DNA of 64,000 nucleotides from Candidatus Adlerbacteria bacterium (GCA_026397405.1 JAPLUW010000002.1:40214-104213), one strand, 5' to 3'. Counted from the first letter of the stretch, positions 9,418 through 62,872 are shown. The notes: generated from the sequence alone by a model not told the origin. Translations and numbers: made by a program.

Positions 9418-10160
9418 ATCGTTTTATTGTTACTGTCCTGGATAATATCCACGTAAATATTTTCGAGCTTTTCTTTGCCGTTAGCTTCGAGCAGTTTGTG
9501 CATCGTCTCATGAAGCTTTACTTCCCCTTTGTTGATTATGGCAACGGTGCGGCAGAGTTCCTCCGCCTCTTCCAAGTAGTGGGTCGTCAAAATAATGGTT
9601 GTGCCTTCGGCGTTCATACGGCGCAAAAAATCCCACATGCCACGACGCATTTCGATGTCTACGCCGGCTGTCGGCTCGTCCAAAATAAGGAGCTTGGGTT
9701 TGTGGATGAGTGCGCGGGCTATCATCAAGCGGCGCTTCATACCGCCAGAGAGTTGCTGCGACGGACTGTCCTTCTTTTCCCACAGACCGAGTTCTTTTAG
9801 TATCGGCTCTGCGTCTTTAATTGCTTGTGCGCGTGGGATGCCGTAGTAACCCGCCTGTACGGTAATGATGTCGATAACCTTTTCAAAAATATTGAAGTTA
9901 AATTCCTGCGGCACCACACCAATGTAGGTTTTTGTTTTGTCGCGGTCAGTGTCCAGCGAGTTGCCGAATATTTTTACTTCACCGCTGCTTTTAGTTGTGA
10001 GGCTAGTCAAGATGCTTATGATAGTCGACTTGCCTGCGCCGTTGGGGCCAAGTAAGGCAAAAAAGTCACCCTCGGCAATTTCCAAGTCAACACCCTTGAG
10101 AGCTTCTACTCCTGTCTTGTACGTTTTGCGAAGATTTTTGATTGAAACAGCGTTTGTCAT
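9414..10160 (-). CDS. ABC transporter ATP-binding protein
   Basis: Walker A GPNGAGKST, signature LSGGMKRRL, Walker B LLILDEPTAGVD. Confidence 0.85.
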   Translation of the reverse strand: MTNAVSIKNLRKTYKTGVEALKGVDLEIAEGDFFALLGPNGAGKSTIISILTSLTTKSSGEVKIFGNSLDTDRDKTKTYIGVVPQEFNFNIFEKVIDIITVQAGYYGIPRAQAIKDAEPILKELGLWEKKDSPSQQLSGGMKRRLMIARALIHKPKLLILDEPTAGVDIEMRRGMWDFLRRMNAEGTTIILTTHYLEEAEELCRTVAIINKGEVKLHETMHKLLEANGKEKLENIYVDIIQDSNNKTI

Positions 10161-10267
10161 GAAGGCTACAGTATACCACAGTAGGTTTGGCCGGGCAGAT
10201 AGGAATCAAAAAACCCCTCATGCCACAAAGACAGGAAGGGTTTTTTGGTGCACAAAAACAGAGCGGA

Positions 10268-38790: not shown

Positions 38791-39495
38791 ATGACAGAGG
38801 TGACACAGAATATAAAAATTCCAGCCAGTTGGAAGGAACTTGTGTCGGCTGAATTTGAAAAACCGTATTTTAAAGAATTAACTGCAAAAGTAAAAAAAGA
38901 ATATTTGTCGAGTAGCGTATTTCCTCACCCATCTAAAATTTTCCGTGCATTCGACTACTTTGACCCCAAAGACACAAAAGTGGTTATTTTGGGCCAAGAT
39001 CCCTACCATACGCCTGGTGTTGCACACGGTCTTTCTTTTTCGACCGAAAGCACAAACCCAGTTCCTCCGTCGCTGCAAAATATTTTTAAAGAAATTGAAC
39101 TAGAGTATGGCATAAATTCCGCCAGAGGCGGATCCGCCTCTGGCGGAAAAAACCCTGACTTAACACGCTGGGCCAAGCAGGGCGTGTTACTGCTAAACGC
39201 GTCACTTACGGTAAAAGCAGGTCTTGCAAATTCGCATGCTGACTACGGCTGGCACTTGTTTACCGACGCGGTTATCAAAGCACTTTCTGAAAAACACGAA
39301 CATATTGTCTTTATGCTCTGGGGCGCATTTGCCGCCAAAAAAGAAATTGAAATAGACTCTACTCGGCACAATATATTAAAAGCCCCACATCCGTCCCCGC
39401 TTTCTGCCCATCGCGGCTTCTTGGGCTGCAACCACTTCAAACTTGCAAACGAGTATTTAAAACAACACGGACGTGGAGAAATTGACTGGAAATAG
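38791..39495 (+). CDS. ung: uracil-DNA glycosylase (family 1)
   Basis: Water-activating loop VVILGQDPYH, PPSL and a C-terminal HPSPLSA. 234 aa. Confidence 0.85.
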   Translation: MTEVTQNIKIPASWKELVSAEFEKPYFKELTAKVKKEYLSSSVFPHPSKIFRAFDYFDPKDTKVVILGQDPYHTPGVAHGLSFSTESTNPVPPSLQNIFKEIELEYGINSARGGSASGGKNPDLTRWAKQGVLLLNASLTVKAGLANSHADYGWHLFTDAVIKALSEKHEHIVFMLWGAFAAKKEIEIDSTRHNILKAPHPSPLSAHRGFLGCNHFKLANEYLKQHGRGEIDWK

Positions 39496-53475: not shown

Positions 53476-53501
53476 CCCCCGAGCCCCGCATTCGAGTAGG
53501 A

Positions 53502-53542
53502 AGAGCCCCGCTCCTCCACTCAACGCGGGGCTCTTTCTTTTT
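53502..53542 (+). terminator. rho-independent terminator (agagccccgc-loop-gcggggctct + T-run)
   Basis: A 10-bp GC-rich stem followed by ttcttttt. Confidence 0.6.
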
Positions 53543-54083: not shown

Positions 54084-54109
54084 CGCCAAGTTCCTGCCGC
54101 AATGCACAA

Positions 54110-54150
54110 GGCCGTCGCTCACTTCGGTGAGACGACGGCCTTTTTCTTTT
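54110..54150. terminator. bidirectional rho-independent terminator (ggccgtcgctcac-ttcg-gtgagacgacggcc + T-run) shared by convergent genes
   Basis: A 13-bp interrupted stem with a tetraloop, followed by tttttctttt. Confidence 0.6.
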
Positions 54151-57319: not shown

Positions 57320-58394
57320 TCCCGACGTTTCGTTTTTCTAATTCTGCGGCAGTGCGTGGCATGACGTGCAGGCCAGTAAATAATGCTGTAGCGCCTGGCG
57401 ATGCAGGTTGTGCAGATGCTGTAACAGGCGACGTAGCAAGAGGCGCAAATGACACTATAGGTTTTGCTGGAGCTGGTGCTGCGCTTGGTGCAGATGTTCG
57501 TATCGAAATTGAAACGGGGGTAGAAGTTGGAGTTGGTGTTGGAGGTGGAGGCACAGGTGCAAACACTGGAGCAACTACCGGTGCTGGGTTCGACACAACG
57601 GCAACAGGGTCTGGTTTGATAATCACGTCAGGTATAAGTGCGGCTTTTGGAGTACTAGCAACAGGAGTAGGCACAGGAACCGGTATTGGAGTCGGTACAG
57701 AAACAGGCTTAGTGACTTGTTGAACAATGCGTGCGACTGGTTGGCGGTCAACATTTATAACAACAGCTGGTTTGACCATATTTGGGAGTGGGGCCGTAGA
57801 AGGAGAAGGTCTTTGAGTTTGCGTATCAGGTTTGCTGGTAAAGGTTGTAGGTTTACCGCGCAATGCAAACACTACAAGTGTCCAACAAAGAGTGAAGCCG
57901 ACAAGCCATGCTCCGTAAAATTCACCCAACTGCAACCACGGTGCCTCTGGTGCCAAAATGTGCACAACAAACAGCGCGTACCAGGTACCTGCAGTGAGGC
58001 CTTGCAACAAACCTGCCACCAGCGACGTGCCTCGGTTAAGTATGGAGAGGGCAAGAAGTATGCTTATCAAACTCCATTTAAATAAGAAAATTGTAGAAAA
58101 AAACGCTTCTTGTTGGCCCGCAAGGTACGCTAACACAACAATGCCAAGCCCTGACAGTAAAATAGACACAAACCCAAAGTCCATCACGTGGCGCACCGCT
58201 TTGGCAAACTTTTTTTCTTGATCGTCGTATGCGCCGTCGCGCATAGAATGCAGATATGCCAAAAGCAACACTGTTTGTGCTCCTACACCAAGCGCCATAC
58301 CAAACTGCTGCACGCAGTACAACAACAAGCTGACAAAACTAAACGAAAGTACAAACGACATACAAAAAGTGTAGCACACGTTTTTGCAGTGCAA
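57312..58394 (-). CDS. hypothetical membrane protein with Pro/Ala/Val-rich C-terminal region
   Basis: About six TM helices, then low-complexity PVPVPTPVA...PPPTPTPTSTP repeats. Confidence 0.45.
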   Translation of the reverse strand: MHCKNVCYTFCMSFVLSFSFVSLLLYCVQQFGMALGVGAQTVLLLAYLHSMRDGAYDDQEKKFAKAVRHVMDFGFVSILLSGLGIVVLAYLAGQQEAFFSTIFLFKWSLISILLALSILNRGTSLVAGLLQGLTAGTWYALFVVHILAPEAPWLQLGEFYGAWLVGFTLCWTLVVFALRGKPTTFTSKPDTQTQRPSPSTAPLPNMVKPAVVINVDRQPVARIVQQVTKPVSVPTPIPVPVPTPVASTPKAALIPDVIIKPDPVAVVSNPAPVVAPVFAPVPPPPTPTPTSTPVSISIRTSAPSAAPAPAKPIVSFAPLATSPVTASAQPASPGATALFTGLHVMPRTAAELEKRNVGNV

Positions 58395-58408
58395 GGCAAT
58401 TTTTATTT

Positions 58409-58645
58409 TTACAACAGGATAGTCGCGCCGTCGCTGCGAACTTCGAGCACGCCCGACTCTATAGGAAACTCACGAGGCTCTATATCGTTTAATTCACGAA
58501 CAATGATAGTTCCTTTTTTTAAGGTTGTGATGACGGGTTCGTGGTGTGTAAGCACTGTCATCTCCCCCGCGGTGCCGGGTACCGTCACAGACACGGCTTC
58601 CCCGTCAAAAAGATTTTCGTTTACTGTTGCTATTACTAATTTCAT
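58409..58645 (-). CDS. atpC: F1 ATP synthase epsilon subunit, N-terminal beta-sandwich only (78 aa)
   Basis: MKLVIATVNENLFDGEAVSVTVPGTAGEMTVLTHHEP is the epsilon N-domain. Last gene of the operon. The C-terminal helical hairpin is absent. Confidence 0.75.
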   Translation of the reverse strand: MKLVIATVNENLFDGEAVSVTVPGTAGEMTVLTHHEPVITTLKKGTIIVRELNDIEPREFPIESGVLEVRSDGATILL

Positions 58646-58655
58646 AGGTGATTTC

Positions 58656-58728
58656 TCAAATCTAACTTTAAAAGAGTGCGCTCCGGGGCGCTAGCCCAAG
58701 TCTAACCCTCTTTTAAAGTTAGATTTGA
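58656..58728. repeat. perfect 21-bp inverted repeat (tcaaatctaactttaaaagag / ctcttttaaagttagatttga) with a 31-nt spacer, in the atpD-atpC intergenic region
   Basis: Arms at 58656-58676 and 58708-58728, read directly. The spacer contains a small GC hairpin (gcgctccggggcgc). Confidence 0.7.
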
Positions 58729-58736
58729 TTTATTAT

Positions 58737-60125
<1,389 letters not shown>

Positions 60126-61043
60126 CTACTGTGCCATTGCCTCCATGCCGCCAATAATCTCTGAAACTTCTCTGGTAATCGCTGCTTGTCTTGCTTTGTT
60201 AAACTCCAGTGTCAATTCATGCTCCATCTCCCCCGCCTTGTCCGACGCGGACTTCATCGACACCATGCGTGCCGAATGTTCGGACGCCTTGCTTTCAAGC
60301 AGCGCGTGATAGACAAAAATAGCAGCGAGTTTGGGGATGAGGGTTTCGAGCACTTTTTCTTCCGACGGCTCGACAGTGTACCCTGCCGATGACTGCGTAG
60401 TATGTGCCTGCCCTGCAAACACGCCACGAGTCGGGGTGATAGCTTCCACCACTTTTGAAAGTTCTGTTAGTGAAAGTGGAAAGACCGTATGCAATACCGG
60501 GCGCTGTTCTAGCGTAGAGACAAAATTTTGGTAGCCTACCTTTACCACGTCGACCACACCGAGCGTAAAGCGGTGTGCGGCCTCGTCAACAATTTCGCGA
60601 ACAATGTCAGAAGTAATTTTGTCATTGTTTGGGTGATACGCCTCTACGACAAACCCTCGTGCGGTAAAAAAGTCGTTTGCTTTTTTGCCTATTGCTACTA
60701 TCTTCACATCTCCCACAGAAAGGCCTGATGTTTGGATGTCGGCCATCACAGCACGCAAGACAGCACTGTTAAGCGCCCCTGCCAAACCCTTGTCGCTCGT
60801 TACTACGATATACAAGGCGTTCGAAACAGTGCGAACAGCGGCAAGCGGTGCACTGCGTAGTTCCTGCGAACCAGACACCCGCGCAAGTATAGACATTGCA
60901 GCTGTGGCGTACGGCCGGCCGGACAGCGCCTGGACCTGTGCTTTGCGCATTTTTGCAGCCGAAACAGCCTCCATGGCTTTTGTCACGGTCTGTGTTTTTT
61001 CGTAGGAACGAATTTGTGATTTTATAGCTTTTAGTCCCGCCAT
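60126..61043 (-). CDS. atpG: F1 ATP synthase gamma subunit
   Basis: N- and C-terminal coiled helices with the gamma consensus (ITKAMEAVSAAKMRKAQ...ITREVSEIIGG). Confidence 0.9.
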   Translation of the reverse strand: MAGLKAIKSQIRSYEKTQTVTKAMEAVSAAKMRKAQVQALSGRPYATAAMSILARVSGSQELRSAPLAAVRTVSNALYIVVTSDKGLAGALNSAVLRAVMADIQTSGLSVGDVKIVAIGKKANDFFTARGFVVEAYHPNNDKITSDIVREIVDEAAHRFTLGVVDVVKVGYQNFVSTLEQRPVLHTVFPLSLTELSKVVEAITPTRGVFAGQAHTTQSSAGYTVEPSEEKVLETLIPKLAAIFVYHALLESKASEHSARMVSMKSASDKAGEMEHELTLEFNKARQAAITREVSEIIGGMEAMAQ

Positions 61044-61052
61044 AGTAGTTGT

Positions 61053-62615
61053 TTATGCGACAAACAGGTCGGTGTGCGTGTCCTGGAATTTTTCCAACTG
61101 TGTCTTCAACTCCTCTTCTGTCTGCGACGCCATGTCGCGTGCACGCTTGATGCTATCCAAAATTTCTGGACGGTTTGCGTCGAGGAACGCGAACAATTTT
61201 TCTTCAAACTCAGGAACGCGTGCTACGGGGACTTTTGCCAAGTAGCCGTTTACTGCGGCGTAAATAATCACGGACTGACGCTCAAATGGTAGAGGTGCGG
61301 CATTTTTCTGGCGCAACACTTGCATCAAACGCTGGCCGGAGTCGATGCGCTTTTTAGTGTCAGCATCCAAGTCTTGGCTAAACTGCATAAAGGCTTCCAA
61401 CTCGCGGAACTGCGCAAGTTCGAGCTTAATGCGGCCAGACACTTTTTTCATCGCTTTGGTTTGTGCACTTGAACCTACGCGAGACACGGAAATACCTGCG
61501 TTAATAGCCGGGCGGATACCTTTGTTAAACAACTCTGTTTCCAAAAAGATCTGTCCGTCGGTGATAGAAATTACGTTTGTTGGGATGTAGCCCGACACGT
61601 CGCCTTCCTGGGTTTCGATAATTGGGAGTGCAGTCAAGGAGCCACCACCTTTTTCTTTACTTAGTTTTGCGGCACGTTCAAGCAAGCGGGAGTGCAAGTA
61701 AAACACGTCACCCGGGTACGCCTCGCGGCCTGGTGGGCGGCGGAGCAACAGCGAAAGCTGGCGGTATGCAACGGCGTGCTTCGAAAGGTCGTCGTAAATG
61801 ATAAGTGCGTCGCGGCCAGAGTCCATAAAATATTCGCCGATTGCAGCGCCTGCAAATGGTGCCAGGTACTGGAGTGCTGCTGGGGCCGAGGCACCTGCGT
61901 CAACAACAATGGTGTATTCGAGTGCGCCGCGGTCGCGGAGCATGCCGACCAAACGTGCAGTTTTAGACTCTTTCTGGCCGATAGAAACGTAGATACAGAT
62001 CGGGCGGGTCTCTTTTGGTTCAGACTTTTGGTTCAAAATTGTGTCTACGGCAACAGTTGTTTTGCCGGTGCCACGGTCACCAATTATCAGTTCGCGTTGT
62101 CCGCGACCAACAGGGATCATCGAGTCGATAGCTTTAATACCGCTGTGGAGCGGCTGGTTAACACTTTGGCGGTCCATCACGCCGTATGCCTCACGTTCAA
62201 TGGGGTTTTTACCTGTTGCAGCAATAGCACCCAAGCCGTCGATAGGTTCGCCAAGGGGCGAGACAACACGGCCGAGCAATGCGTCCCCTACAGGGATAGA
62301 AAGTACCTGCCCTGTCGACTCCACACTCATACCTTCAGACACAAGACTTGAATCGCCCAAAATAATCACGCGAACGGACTCTTCTTCCAAGTTCAAAACA
62401 AGGCCAAATATTTCGGCTGGGGTTGCGATAGCATGCTCGAGAGACTTCTTTCCCGCCGTGTTAAAACGCACCATTTCAGACATCACGGCACCCGGCAGCC
62501 CTTCCACCTCGGCAACACCGTCACCCACTTTTGTGACAACGCCTGTGTTTGCTGCACGCGCAGTTGGCGTAAAGTGTTCTATTTCTTTTTTAAATTGTTC
62601 GATAAAGTTGTTCAT
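61053..62615 (-). CDS. atpA: F1 ATP synthase alpha subunit
   Basis: Walker A GDRGTGKT. 520 aa. Confidence 0.95.
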   Translation of the reverse strand: MNNFIEQFKKEIEHFTPTARAANTGVVTKVGDGVAEVEGLPGAVMSEMVRFNTAGKKSLEHAIATPAEIFGLVLNLEEESVRVIILGDSSLVSEGMSVESTGQVLSIPVGDALLGRVVSPLGEPIDGLGAIAATGKNPIEREAYGVMDRQSVNQPLHSGIKAIDSMIPVGRGQRELIIGDRGTGKTTVAVDTILNQKSEPKETRPICIYVSIGQKESKTARLVGMLRDRGALEYTIVVDAGASAPAALQYLAPFAGAAIGEYFMDSGRDALIIYDDLSKHAVAYRQLSLLLRRPPGREAYPGDVFYLHSRLLERAAKLSKEKGGGSLTALPIIETQEGDVSGYIPTNVISITDGQIFLETELFNKGIRPAINAGISVSRVGSSAQTKAMKKVSGRIKLELAQFRELEAFMQFSQDLDADTKKRIDSGQRLMQVLRQKNAAPLPFERQSVIIYAAVNGYLAKVPVARVPEFEEKLFAFLDANRPEILDSIKRARDMASQTEEELKTQLEKFQDTHTDLFVA

Positions 62616-62872
62616 ACCGTTTTCGTTAATGTCCTGTAGAGTTCGAGCAAATGTCTGGTTCGTTCCTGTTGGGGAGTTTCTGCTTTTTGCGACTCGACTC
62701 GTTCTTTGTGGTCTACGAGCTTCCGATATTCGTTAAAAATCTTTGGTAGCAGTTTTTGATGACCGCGTTTTTTTAAGGTCGCATCTAAATTATGCAAGTA
62801 TGTGGCACCGTCTTTTGGCTTTTTTTCTATAAGCGCAAACAGGGCGCGTGCGTAATAGAGAGCGGTGTTCAT
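62612..62872 (-). CDS. atpH: F1 ATP synthase delta (OSCP)-like subunit, truncated (86 aa)
   Basis: Position between atpF and atpA. The N-terminus ALYYARALFAL resembles the delta N-terminus. There is no space for a full-length (~180 aa) delta. Confidence 0.45.
   Translation of the reverse strand: MNTALYYARALFALIEKKPKDGATYLHNLDATLKKRGHQKLLPKIFNEYRKLVDHKERVESQKAETPQQERTRHLLELYRTLTKTV

Follow-up and report, generated by a model that had tools for sequence, protein, structure and literature searches.

The 91-nt gap between atpD and atpC of a Candidatus Adlerbacteria bacterium carries a recurrent, junction-restricted hairpin of CPR bacteria, which is neither noise nor a member of a known family and whose function we infer. 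It is an element of approximately 73 nt that was inserted at the atpD-atpC junction. The reading that we favour, although only tentatively, is that it forms a looped-out intercistronic hairpin there and possibly acts as a processing or stability signal. In the following, the window is the whole stretch of DNA that was analysed, i.e. 64,000 nucleotides.

The two arms of the inverted repeat were located by a repeat finder at 58656-58676 (TCAAATCTAACTTTAAAAGAG) and 58708-58728 (CTCTTTTAAAGTTAGATTTGA). They are complementary at 21/21 nt and separated by a spacer of 31 nt, and the atpD-atpC gap at 58646-58736 (91 nt) encloses both of them, exactly as an earlier note on this DNA had described. Among inverted repeats with arms no more than 200 nt apart, this perfect 21-nt repeat is the longest in the 64-kb window. 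A search of the window for the arm with up to three mismatches returned the two arms alone, and 100 shuffles gave no match. Since atpD and atpC both lie on the minus strand, the atp mRNA corresponds to the reverse complement of the window, and the gap reads on the message as AUAAUAAA-[UCAAAUCUAACUUUAAAAGAG]-GGUUAGACUUGGGCUAGCGCCCCGGAGCGCA-[CUCUUUUAAAGUUAGAUUUGA]-GAAAUCACCU-AUG, with the arms in brackets. All parts of it are therefore given here for the minus strand. According to the fold, an unpaired flank of 8 nt (58729-58736; AUAAUAAA) leads from the atpD stop to the hairpin base, and it aligns with CTAATGAA in the 20-nt spacer of the closest relative. The 5' arm (58708-58728; UCAAAUCUAACUUUAAAAGAG) and the 3' arm (58656-58676; CUCUUUUAAAGUUAGAUUUGA), both defined by repeat search and fold, enclose a 31-nt core (58677-58707; GGUUAGACUUGGGCUAGCGCCCCGGAGCGCA) that is composed of a 3-nt bulge, helix P2, a 2-nt bulge and helix P3. 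This core is what relatives have kept of the element, as seen in alignments A3 and A4, in pair counts and in a BLAST match to locus L065 (91% over 57 nt). Helix P3, delimited by alignment and pair counts, is the mini-hairpin GGGC-UAGC-GCCC at 58686-58697, which the earlier note had also recognised as a GC mini-hairpin in the spacer. In the relatives it reads GGCC-UAGC-GGCC, with the third pair representing a compensatory change (columns 23-31: CG in five sequences, GC in one). Finally, an unpaired flank of 10 nt (58646-58655; GAAAUCACCU) connects the hairpin to the atpC AUG, and fold and motif scan show it to be without a Shine-Dalgarno motif.

The neighbouring genes belong to an ATP-synthase operon on the minus strand, which comprises atpB (partial), atpE, atpF, an 86-aa ORF at the atpH position, atpA (61053-62615), atpG (60126-61043), atpD and atpC. 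In the ORF list, atpD (58737-60107, stop codon TAA at 58737-58739) encodes an F1 beta subunit of 456 aa with matches to Pfam PF02874, PF00006 and PF22919. The F1 epsilon subunit encoded by atpC (58409-58645) has 78 aa and consists of the N-terminal beta-sandwich domain only (PF02823, E 1.8e-17, profile positions 1-76 of 80); it is identical to the NT019_03355 protein of a Candidatus Adlerbacteria MAG. The earlier note had taken this epsilon for truncated. However, 81 of 81 AtpC homologues from a first search are 75-96 aa long and those from a second search are similarly short, hence a short epsilon is the norm of the clade and unrelated to the hairpin. The ORF at the atpH (delta/OSCP) position (62612-62872, minus strand, 86 aa) has no Pfam match at E <=0.001, and ORFs of the same length occupy this position in L002, L093, L096 and L099. 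Alongside the short epsilon, the delta subunit seems to be very short or divergent in this clade.

The RNA of the gap folds with -36.4 kcal/mol (z = -6.4), and none of 200 shuffles was equally stable, so that the very stable mRNA stem proposed before holds; as DNA, each strand of the gap folds with approximately -23 kcal/mol. The stability of the 31-nt spacer alone is not unusual (z +0.8), and hence the support for the mini-hairpin is its conservation in relatives. On the mRNA, 8 nt separate the atpD stop from the stem and 10 nt separate the stem from the atpC AUG, and this AUG is unpaired together with the preceding 10 nt in both the MFE and the centroid structure, hence occlusion of the start is not predicted. 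Furthermore, a Shine-Dalgarno-like motif precedes 7 of 59 window genes, and atpC is not among these. An attenuator of translation that hides the ribosome-binding region of atpC, as suggested in the earlier note, would be suited by a very stable stem near the atpC start, but the start codon and the 10 nt ahead of it are accessible in the predicted structures and there is no Shine-Dalgarno site to hide. Together with the second proposal of that note, a classical multi-copy MITE (see below), we regard this explanation as very improbable. Many start codons among the 59 window ORFs scanned have a TATACT/TATAAT-like box approximately 7-12 nt ahead, which suggests leaderless mRNAs or mRNAs with very short leaders.

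Regarding other signals, a scan of 58200-59200 gave no terminator-like sites, and a scan for promoter-like signals found none in or beside the element. An intrinsic terminator was rejected, as its stem would be GC-rich and lead into a run of U, whereas here GAGAAAUCACC comes after the stem on the mRNA. Canonical intrinsic terminators, with a GC-rich stem and then a T run, are present in the window at 10207-10247, 53498-53538 and 54101-54149, which means that this genome uses ordinary terminators, unlike the atpD-atpC hairpin. RNase III sites are characterised by an RNA duplex of at least approximately 20 bp, and the stem provides 21 consecutive Watson-Crick pairs. A perfect duplex of 21 bp is long enough for an RNase III substrate or an exonuclease barrier.

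It is well supported by comparison with close relatives that the hairpin represents a lineage-specific insertion of approximately 73 nt, and that the atpD-atpC spacer was short before. The closest relative, represented by GCA_037135035.1 and three further assemblies, has an AtpC 95% identical to that of the window and is 100% identical in the last 150 residues of AtpD; its flanking genes are the same, and its atpD-atpC spacer measures 20 nt (CTAATGAAGCAAAAAGTTCT). Relatives with 79, 77 and 76% identical AtpC likewise have the same flanking genes, and their gaps are 1, -1 and -1 nt, respectively. The flanks of the window's hairpin, 8 and 10 nt long, each roughly match one end of the closest relative's 20-nt spacer, and no target-site duplication was found when filled and empty sites were compared. 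The window departs from the 94% identical L003 above all in two places, the initial 27 nt of atpC and the terminal 20 nt of atpD, and codons 2, 4 and 9 of atpC (window 58619-58645 are its first nine codons) match those of L065, a carrier of the same element type. Both observations may reflect a recombination tract. An origin of the element in an L065-like donor, with recombination as the route, was considered and rejected, given that the hints are weak and the intergenic flanks unlike those of L065.

Halves of the element are present in Logan contigs from SRR20698652 and SRR20698643, one half in each, and because two SRA runs contain them, the element is not an artefact of a single assembly. 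At the contig ends, L001 1-54 corresponds to window 58685-58728 and L002 11372-11423 to window 58656-58699, i.e. each contig covers exactly 44 nt of the 73-nt element before it breaks off, and the two ends mirror each other about the centre of the element. Two causes of these ends were rejected by simulation of unitigs with k=31, since a mixture with inverted spacers predicts an offset of 21 and a presence/absence mixture one of 0 nt, while 44 nt were observed. Our guess is that reads dropped out across the hairpin.

Relatives of the element were sought by scanning metagenome contigs with an AtpC alignment, which resulted in 80 loci, and 63 non-redundant loci with both genes were compared. The atpD-atpC gap is 25 nt or shorter at 30 of these 63 loci, often with ATGA or TAATG overlaps, measures 26-79 nt at 8 and 80-160 nt at 22 loci, and exceeds 160 nt at 3. 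A fold with z <= -2.8 was obtained for 20 gaps, including that of the window, and a long hairpin of some kind occurs at about one third of the 63 sampled junctions, with at least three sequence types. The first solid helix begins 1-11 nt past the stop codon in the 18 hairpin-bearing gaps and ends 8-22 nt ahead of the start codon in 16 of the 18. Since 30 of the 63 gaps have 25 nt or less and half of the sampled lineages are without a hairpin, it is not essential.

We refer to elements in the atpD-atpC spacer with a long basal stem around the conserved core as type A, and the window element shows all of these features. A core homologous to that of the window was found at the same junction in six more distant Parcubacteria-like loci. 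L065, L072, L021 and L055 carry it in the same orientation as the window; in L014 and L040 it is reverse-complemented relative to atpD and atpC, and there the reverse complement can be aligned over the full length of the spacer. The earlier note had held that absence from close relatives would speak against a regulatory role. The comparison of spacers cuts both ways, because the element is indeed absent in the closest relatives, whereas the homologous element occupies the same junction in more distant lineages.

The covariance model R2 was made from the six other members, leaving the window out, and R1 with the window included. With filters off, R2 matched a unit of 51 nt at 58667-58717 on the minus strand of the 64-kb window with 59.9 bits (E 2.8e-17; R1 gave 68.3 bits), compared to 8.8 bits on the plus strand and 10.7 bits for the next best match in the window. 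R1 returned nothing outside atpD-atpC gaps in approximately 410 kb, including 20 kb around the L065 locus, and over approximately 440 kb in all the type-A models matched in the atpD-atpC spacer only. BLAST of all gap elements against 365 kb with the gaps masked also gave no copy at another location.

The type-A layout begins with a long basal stem of variable sequence and a 4-bp extension (GGGU/GCNC), continues with a 3-nt bulge on the 5' side, a 4-bp helix (NCUU/GAGN) and a 2-nt bulge on the 3' side, and ends in a 4-bp GC helix capped by UAGC, which is replaced by GUGA or UAGA in single members. In alignment A4, 84.8% of the cells are paired, compared to 34-58% with the 3' partners slid. Double changes were found at six pairs, among them GGGC/GCCC in the window versus GGCC/GGCC elsewhere, helices P3 and P1 show compensatory changes, and two U.G pairs are invariant in all seven type-A sequences. 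The outer stems cannot be aligned among the window (UCAAAUCUAAC...), L065 and L072, yet they are paired in each of them. The interior is 86-100% identical among members, and the termini are the least conserved part. Taken together, this sequence comparison lends good support to the assignment of the window element to type A.

Searches elsewhere revealed no dispersed copies. The exact 21-nt arm had no match in 185,579 representative genomes (one per species, GTDB), in the JGI metagenomes or in IMG/VR, and when the masked window was searched by sensitive short-word blastn with the element, the arm and the spacer, no match exceeded 10 nt. The termini pattern TCAAATCTAAC-N36-66-GTTAGATTTGA matched twice in the representative genomes, in a Woesearchaeota MAG and in Cocleimonas. 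These two matches were rejected as true copies, since there is no further similarity and their number is close to the chance expectation that we estimated. A degenerate core pattern was absent from viral contigs, and phage and plasmid collections, queried with the 91-nt gap by blastn, returned chance matches alone (E 3-10). Hence, the second half of the explanation mentioned above, the classical MITE, finds little in its favour: the 21-bp perfect terminal inverted repeats resemble MITE ends and the search for copies covered approximately 70 kb of the source genome, but no second copy was detected in the window by the arm search with up to three mismatches, by BLAST or by the covariance model with filters off, in agreement with the earlier note, and none in the window plus the Logan flanks. 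Dispersed copies, a target-site duplication and conserved termini are all missing, with the interior instead of the termini being conserved. Among 50 window ORFs scanned against Pfam, there is no transposase, recombinase, integrase or RNase III.

Several other identities were also considered. A tRNA/tmRNA scan of the window was negative, the window had no match in Rfam 15, a collection that comprises ATPC and self-cleaving ribozymes, at the gathering score, with noise alone at E 3-10 in the region, and the gaps of 13 related loci gave no Rfam 15 match at E <=1. An assignment to REP/BIME was discarded because the window holds a single copy and the 50 ORFs scanned in it show neither a transposase nor an HUH domain. 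An integron attC site, which would be recognised by R''/R' boxes (RYYYAAC ... GTTRRRY), extrahelical bases and an integron context, was rejected as well, because the ATCTAAC/GTTAGAT motifs seen by eye in the arms are not kept in L065, L072 or other members, the stem is perfect and without extrahelical bases, and no integrase was found among the scanned window ORFs. Likenesses to a K-turn, SRP RNA or RNase P, noted by eye, were dismissed, as their motifs are not conserved across members or have no Rfam support. Invertons would show both orientations within one population, a promoter or other signal inside and an invertase; here, the two orientations were seen across lineages, the element is without promoter, and the scanned window ORFs include no recombinase. 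A literature search for a described element of such kind returned nothing relevant. The window contains another palindrome, a perfect one of 32 nt without spacer (TTCCGCCAGAGGCGGA|TCCGCCTCTGGCGGAA) at 39117-39148, inside an ORF at 38791-39495 (plus strand) that matches the uracil-DNA glycosylase superfamily.

Some well-studied systems resemble the element in part. Enterobacterial REP/BIME and ERIC-type elements are co-transcribed intercistronic palindromes, whose stem-loops can protect the upstream mRNA from 3' exonucleases and set expression ratios; they exist in tens to hundreds of dispersed copies with conserved sequence heads, and REPs are linked to RAYT transposases. The atpD-atpC hairpin is likewise a short palindrome between genes of one operon, but in all sequence searched it was found in one copy per locus and at this junction only. 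Intercistronic hairpins cleaved by RNase III are found at the phage T7 early/late mRNA sites and in E. coli rplL-rpoB. With these our element shares the irregular hairpin of about two duplex turns with internal bulges between coding regions, and RNase III cleavage, if any, would here leave a 3' hairpin on the upstream message. However, no rnc was seen among the scanned window ORFs, and we know of no such T7 or rplL-rpoB site that exists in both orientations or turns over between close relatives. The Correia/NEMIS elements of Neisseria are MITEs that are co-transcribed and form hairpins. Like the atpD-atpC hairpin, they are small, carry terminal inverted repeats, insert beside genes and yield a long RNA duplex upon transcription; they differ in that our element has neither multiple copies nor a target-site duplication, and its interior, not its termini, is kept among relatives. 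The Rfam ATPC RNA motif, situated in the cyanobacterial ATP-synthase operon between F0 genes and not between beta and epsilon, is comparable as a conserved RNA-like structure within an ATP-synthase operon, but the window element has no Rfam match at E <=10 and the relatives' elements have none at E <=1. Finally, hairpins are skipped in the caulimovirus ribosome shunt and the T4 gene 60 bypass. By analogy only, the upstream frame ends here a few nt before a long hairpin as well, and translation would resume just past it. Hairpin skipping is not known from operon coupling in bacteria. Ordinary re-initiation over the 91 nt would also work here, with a modest loss (PMC4538824).

The cores are unusually well conserved. 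Between L065 and L072 the core is identical at 45/45 nt, compared to third codon positions that are 71% (atpD) and 64% (atpC) identical; the window matches L065 at 52/57 nt, compared to 41-56% at third positions of the flanking genes. Similarly, L024 and L041, two carriers of another type in opposite orientations, are 89% identical over 79 nt versus about 50% at third positions. Cores that are more conserved than flanking synonymous sites point to purifying selection or recent exchange. Such strong conservation of the core sequence would be unexplained if the duplex alone mattered.

The distribution is patchy. In a rough AtpD/AtpC tree, the clade of the window is otherwise without any element, and elsewhere carriers are interspersed with non-carriers, with types and orientations mixed. 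L092, which is absent from the tree and has an AtpC 73% identical to that of the window, carries a type-B hairpin at the same junction. Type B comprises L023, L024, L025, L027, L041 and L092 and likewise occurs in both orientations. A kinship of types A and B, proposed on the basis of motifs compared by hand (CUUGG/UCUGG, CCGGAG/CCGAGG), is not supported, because R1 with filters off gives noise on type-B gaps. Turnover is fast, as seen in the relatives of L065: one with 88% identical AtpC (L096) has an unrelated 69-nt hairpin at 9932-10000 (stem by eye AGCCACTAG ... CTAGTGGCT), on whose atpD-atpC gap the type-A model finds no match, and another with 79% identical AtpC has a gap of 5 nt.

Other sequences are found at this junction as well. 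In L013, where the gap measures 1411 nt, an ORF of 430 aa with RTX-like GGxGxD repeats (by eye) lies between atpD and atpC (590-2000). The gaps of L056 and L057 (1844-2000; z -0.3 and -1.0, respectively) and L046 (241-387) are not hairpins, and their translation by eye suggests a small zinc-ribbon-like peptide rich in Cys (MPIKPKCDKCGKEL...CVDCFKK). In L020, at approximately 686-707, a palindrome spans the atpD stop codon (TTGGGAGC-TAA-GCTCCCAA), with the final atpD codons on one side and the spacer on the other. This spacer resembles the gene end copied in reverse complement, as might arise from template switching.

One alternative to a signal that serves the cell is a non-autonomous palindrome in the DNA, selfish or neutral and specific for this junction, which would have no function for the cell and persist only because a self-paired insert does little harm. 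It would have spread among Parcubacteria either site-specifically or via homologous recombination in which the conserved ends of atpD and atpC take part. We consider this possible, though on the whole unlikely. The patchy distribution with its mixture of types and orientations is in line with it, as are the different type at the same junction in L092, the fast turnover among the relatives of L065, the other insertions at the junction (the 430-aa ORF in L013 and the small ORFs in L046, L056 and L057), and a window core that is approximately 91-93% identical to the cores of lineages with AtpC just 59-62% identical. Moreover, the differences between the window and L003 are concentrated beside the element, the first atpC codons resemble those of L065, and the perfect 21/21 stem fits a recent event. 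However, the Pfam scan of 50 window ORFs gave no enzyme for mobility, filled and empty sites show no target-site duplication, and the least conserved part are the termini, which is the opposite of elements recognised by a transposase. In addition, recombination of the whole spacer would carry the outer stems along, but those of the window cannot be aligned with L065 or L072, and recombination guided by the flanks would give a single orientation.

The orientation of the elements has further implications. When both strands of 12 elements were folded, the sense strand as defined by the element itself was the better folder in 11, and all five elements lying antisense to atp were among these. The occurrence of both orientations with the same two invariant U.G pairs is not predicted by a purely mRNA-level role and hints at a DNA-level function or a strand-specific partner. 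It could be assumed that the hairpins form an undescribed class of locus-restricted, orientation-flipping elements in Parcubacteria, with cores under strong one-strand constraint, which would imply a dedicated partner specific for both sequence and structure and speak against a merely passive stem-loop. Such a partner would be, for example, a recombination system for single-stranded DNA hairpins homing to the junction, or an RNA-binding regulator of the epsilon stoichiometry. We regard this far-reaching assumption as doubtful. A site at the DNA level, either a hairpin/cruciform or an asymmetric duplex, which is bound by a recombinase, a replication/repair factor or a nucleoid protein irrespective of the direction of atp, appears improbable to us. 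It would account for the free orientation in spite of a strand-specific core with retained invariant U.G (T.G) positions, for core conservation beyond synonymous sites, and for one copy per locus examined. Nevertheless, no candidate protein was found, the compensatory changes in P3 and P1 suit a folded single strand better than a duplex operator, no reason is known for a position precisely between atpD and atpC, and about half of the lineages do without the site. The strand-specific model score (59.9 versus 8.8 bits) and the better folding of the sense strand, reversed elements included, would also be consistent with an independent small RNA gene between atpD and atpC that is transcribed from its own strand either way round. 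But there is neither a promoter- or terminator-like signal in or beside the element nor a match to an Rfam family, the hairpin fills nearly the whole gap and leaves no room for signals of its own, and an antisense gene within an essential operon is unlikely to arise repeatedly. Hence, we give such a gene hardly any probability.

In the preferred reading as a looped-out intercistronic hairpin, the element would be co-transcribed with the atp operon and fold into a long stem between the atpD stop and the atpC start. Folding would loop the insert out, leaving stop and start separated by approximately 18 unpaired nt, which is close to the 20-nt spacer of the nearest relative, and the AU-rich atpC start without Shine-Dalgarno motif would remain accessible. 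A looped-out insert combined with an accessible start could explain why a junction otherwise dependent on tight coupling tolerates the insertion. Re-initiation in reporter operons of E. coli was nearly constant at distances of 0-25 nt and decreased just 1.4- to 2-fold per 100 nt (PMC4538824), hence an insert of this kind would be cheap. The 21-bp duplex could furthermore act as an RNase III-type site or as a barrier for 3' exonucleases, by which the fates of the beta and epsilon segments of the message would be separated; an effect on beta/epsilon coupling or mRNA fate is plausible. The element might arrive and flip through recombination with relatives or through template switching at the palindrome, or a recombination system might be dedicated to it. 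The looped-out hairpin would explain why unrelated hairpin sequences are found at the junction in either orientation. However, it gives no account of the core conservation and the strand asymmetry, and therefore the selfish element and the DNA-level site stay alive as explanations.

For annotation, these results mean that a short epsilon and a long spacer are no sign of a decaying operon. A core that is conserved beyond neighbouring synonymous sites and at the same time free in its orientation is a combination that standard models leave unexplained. If the hairpins are selfish, they would be an unusual case of very small palindromes that have settled time and again, in either direction, at a single conserved gene junction without an enzyme being visible. 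If, on the other hand, the hairpin is a working intercistronic signal, it would be among the few cis-acting RNA elements proposed for CPR bacteria, and it would show how an organism almost without Shine-Dalgarno sites sets its beta:epsilon ratio.
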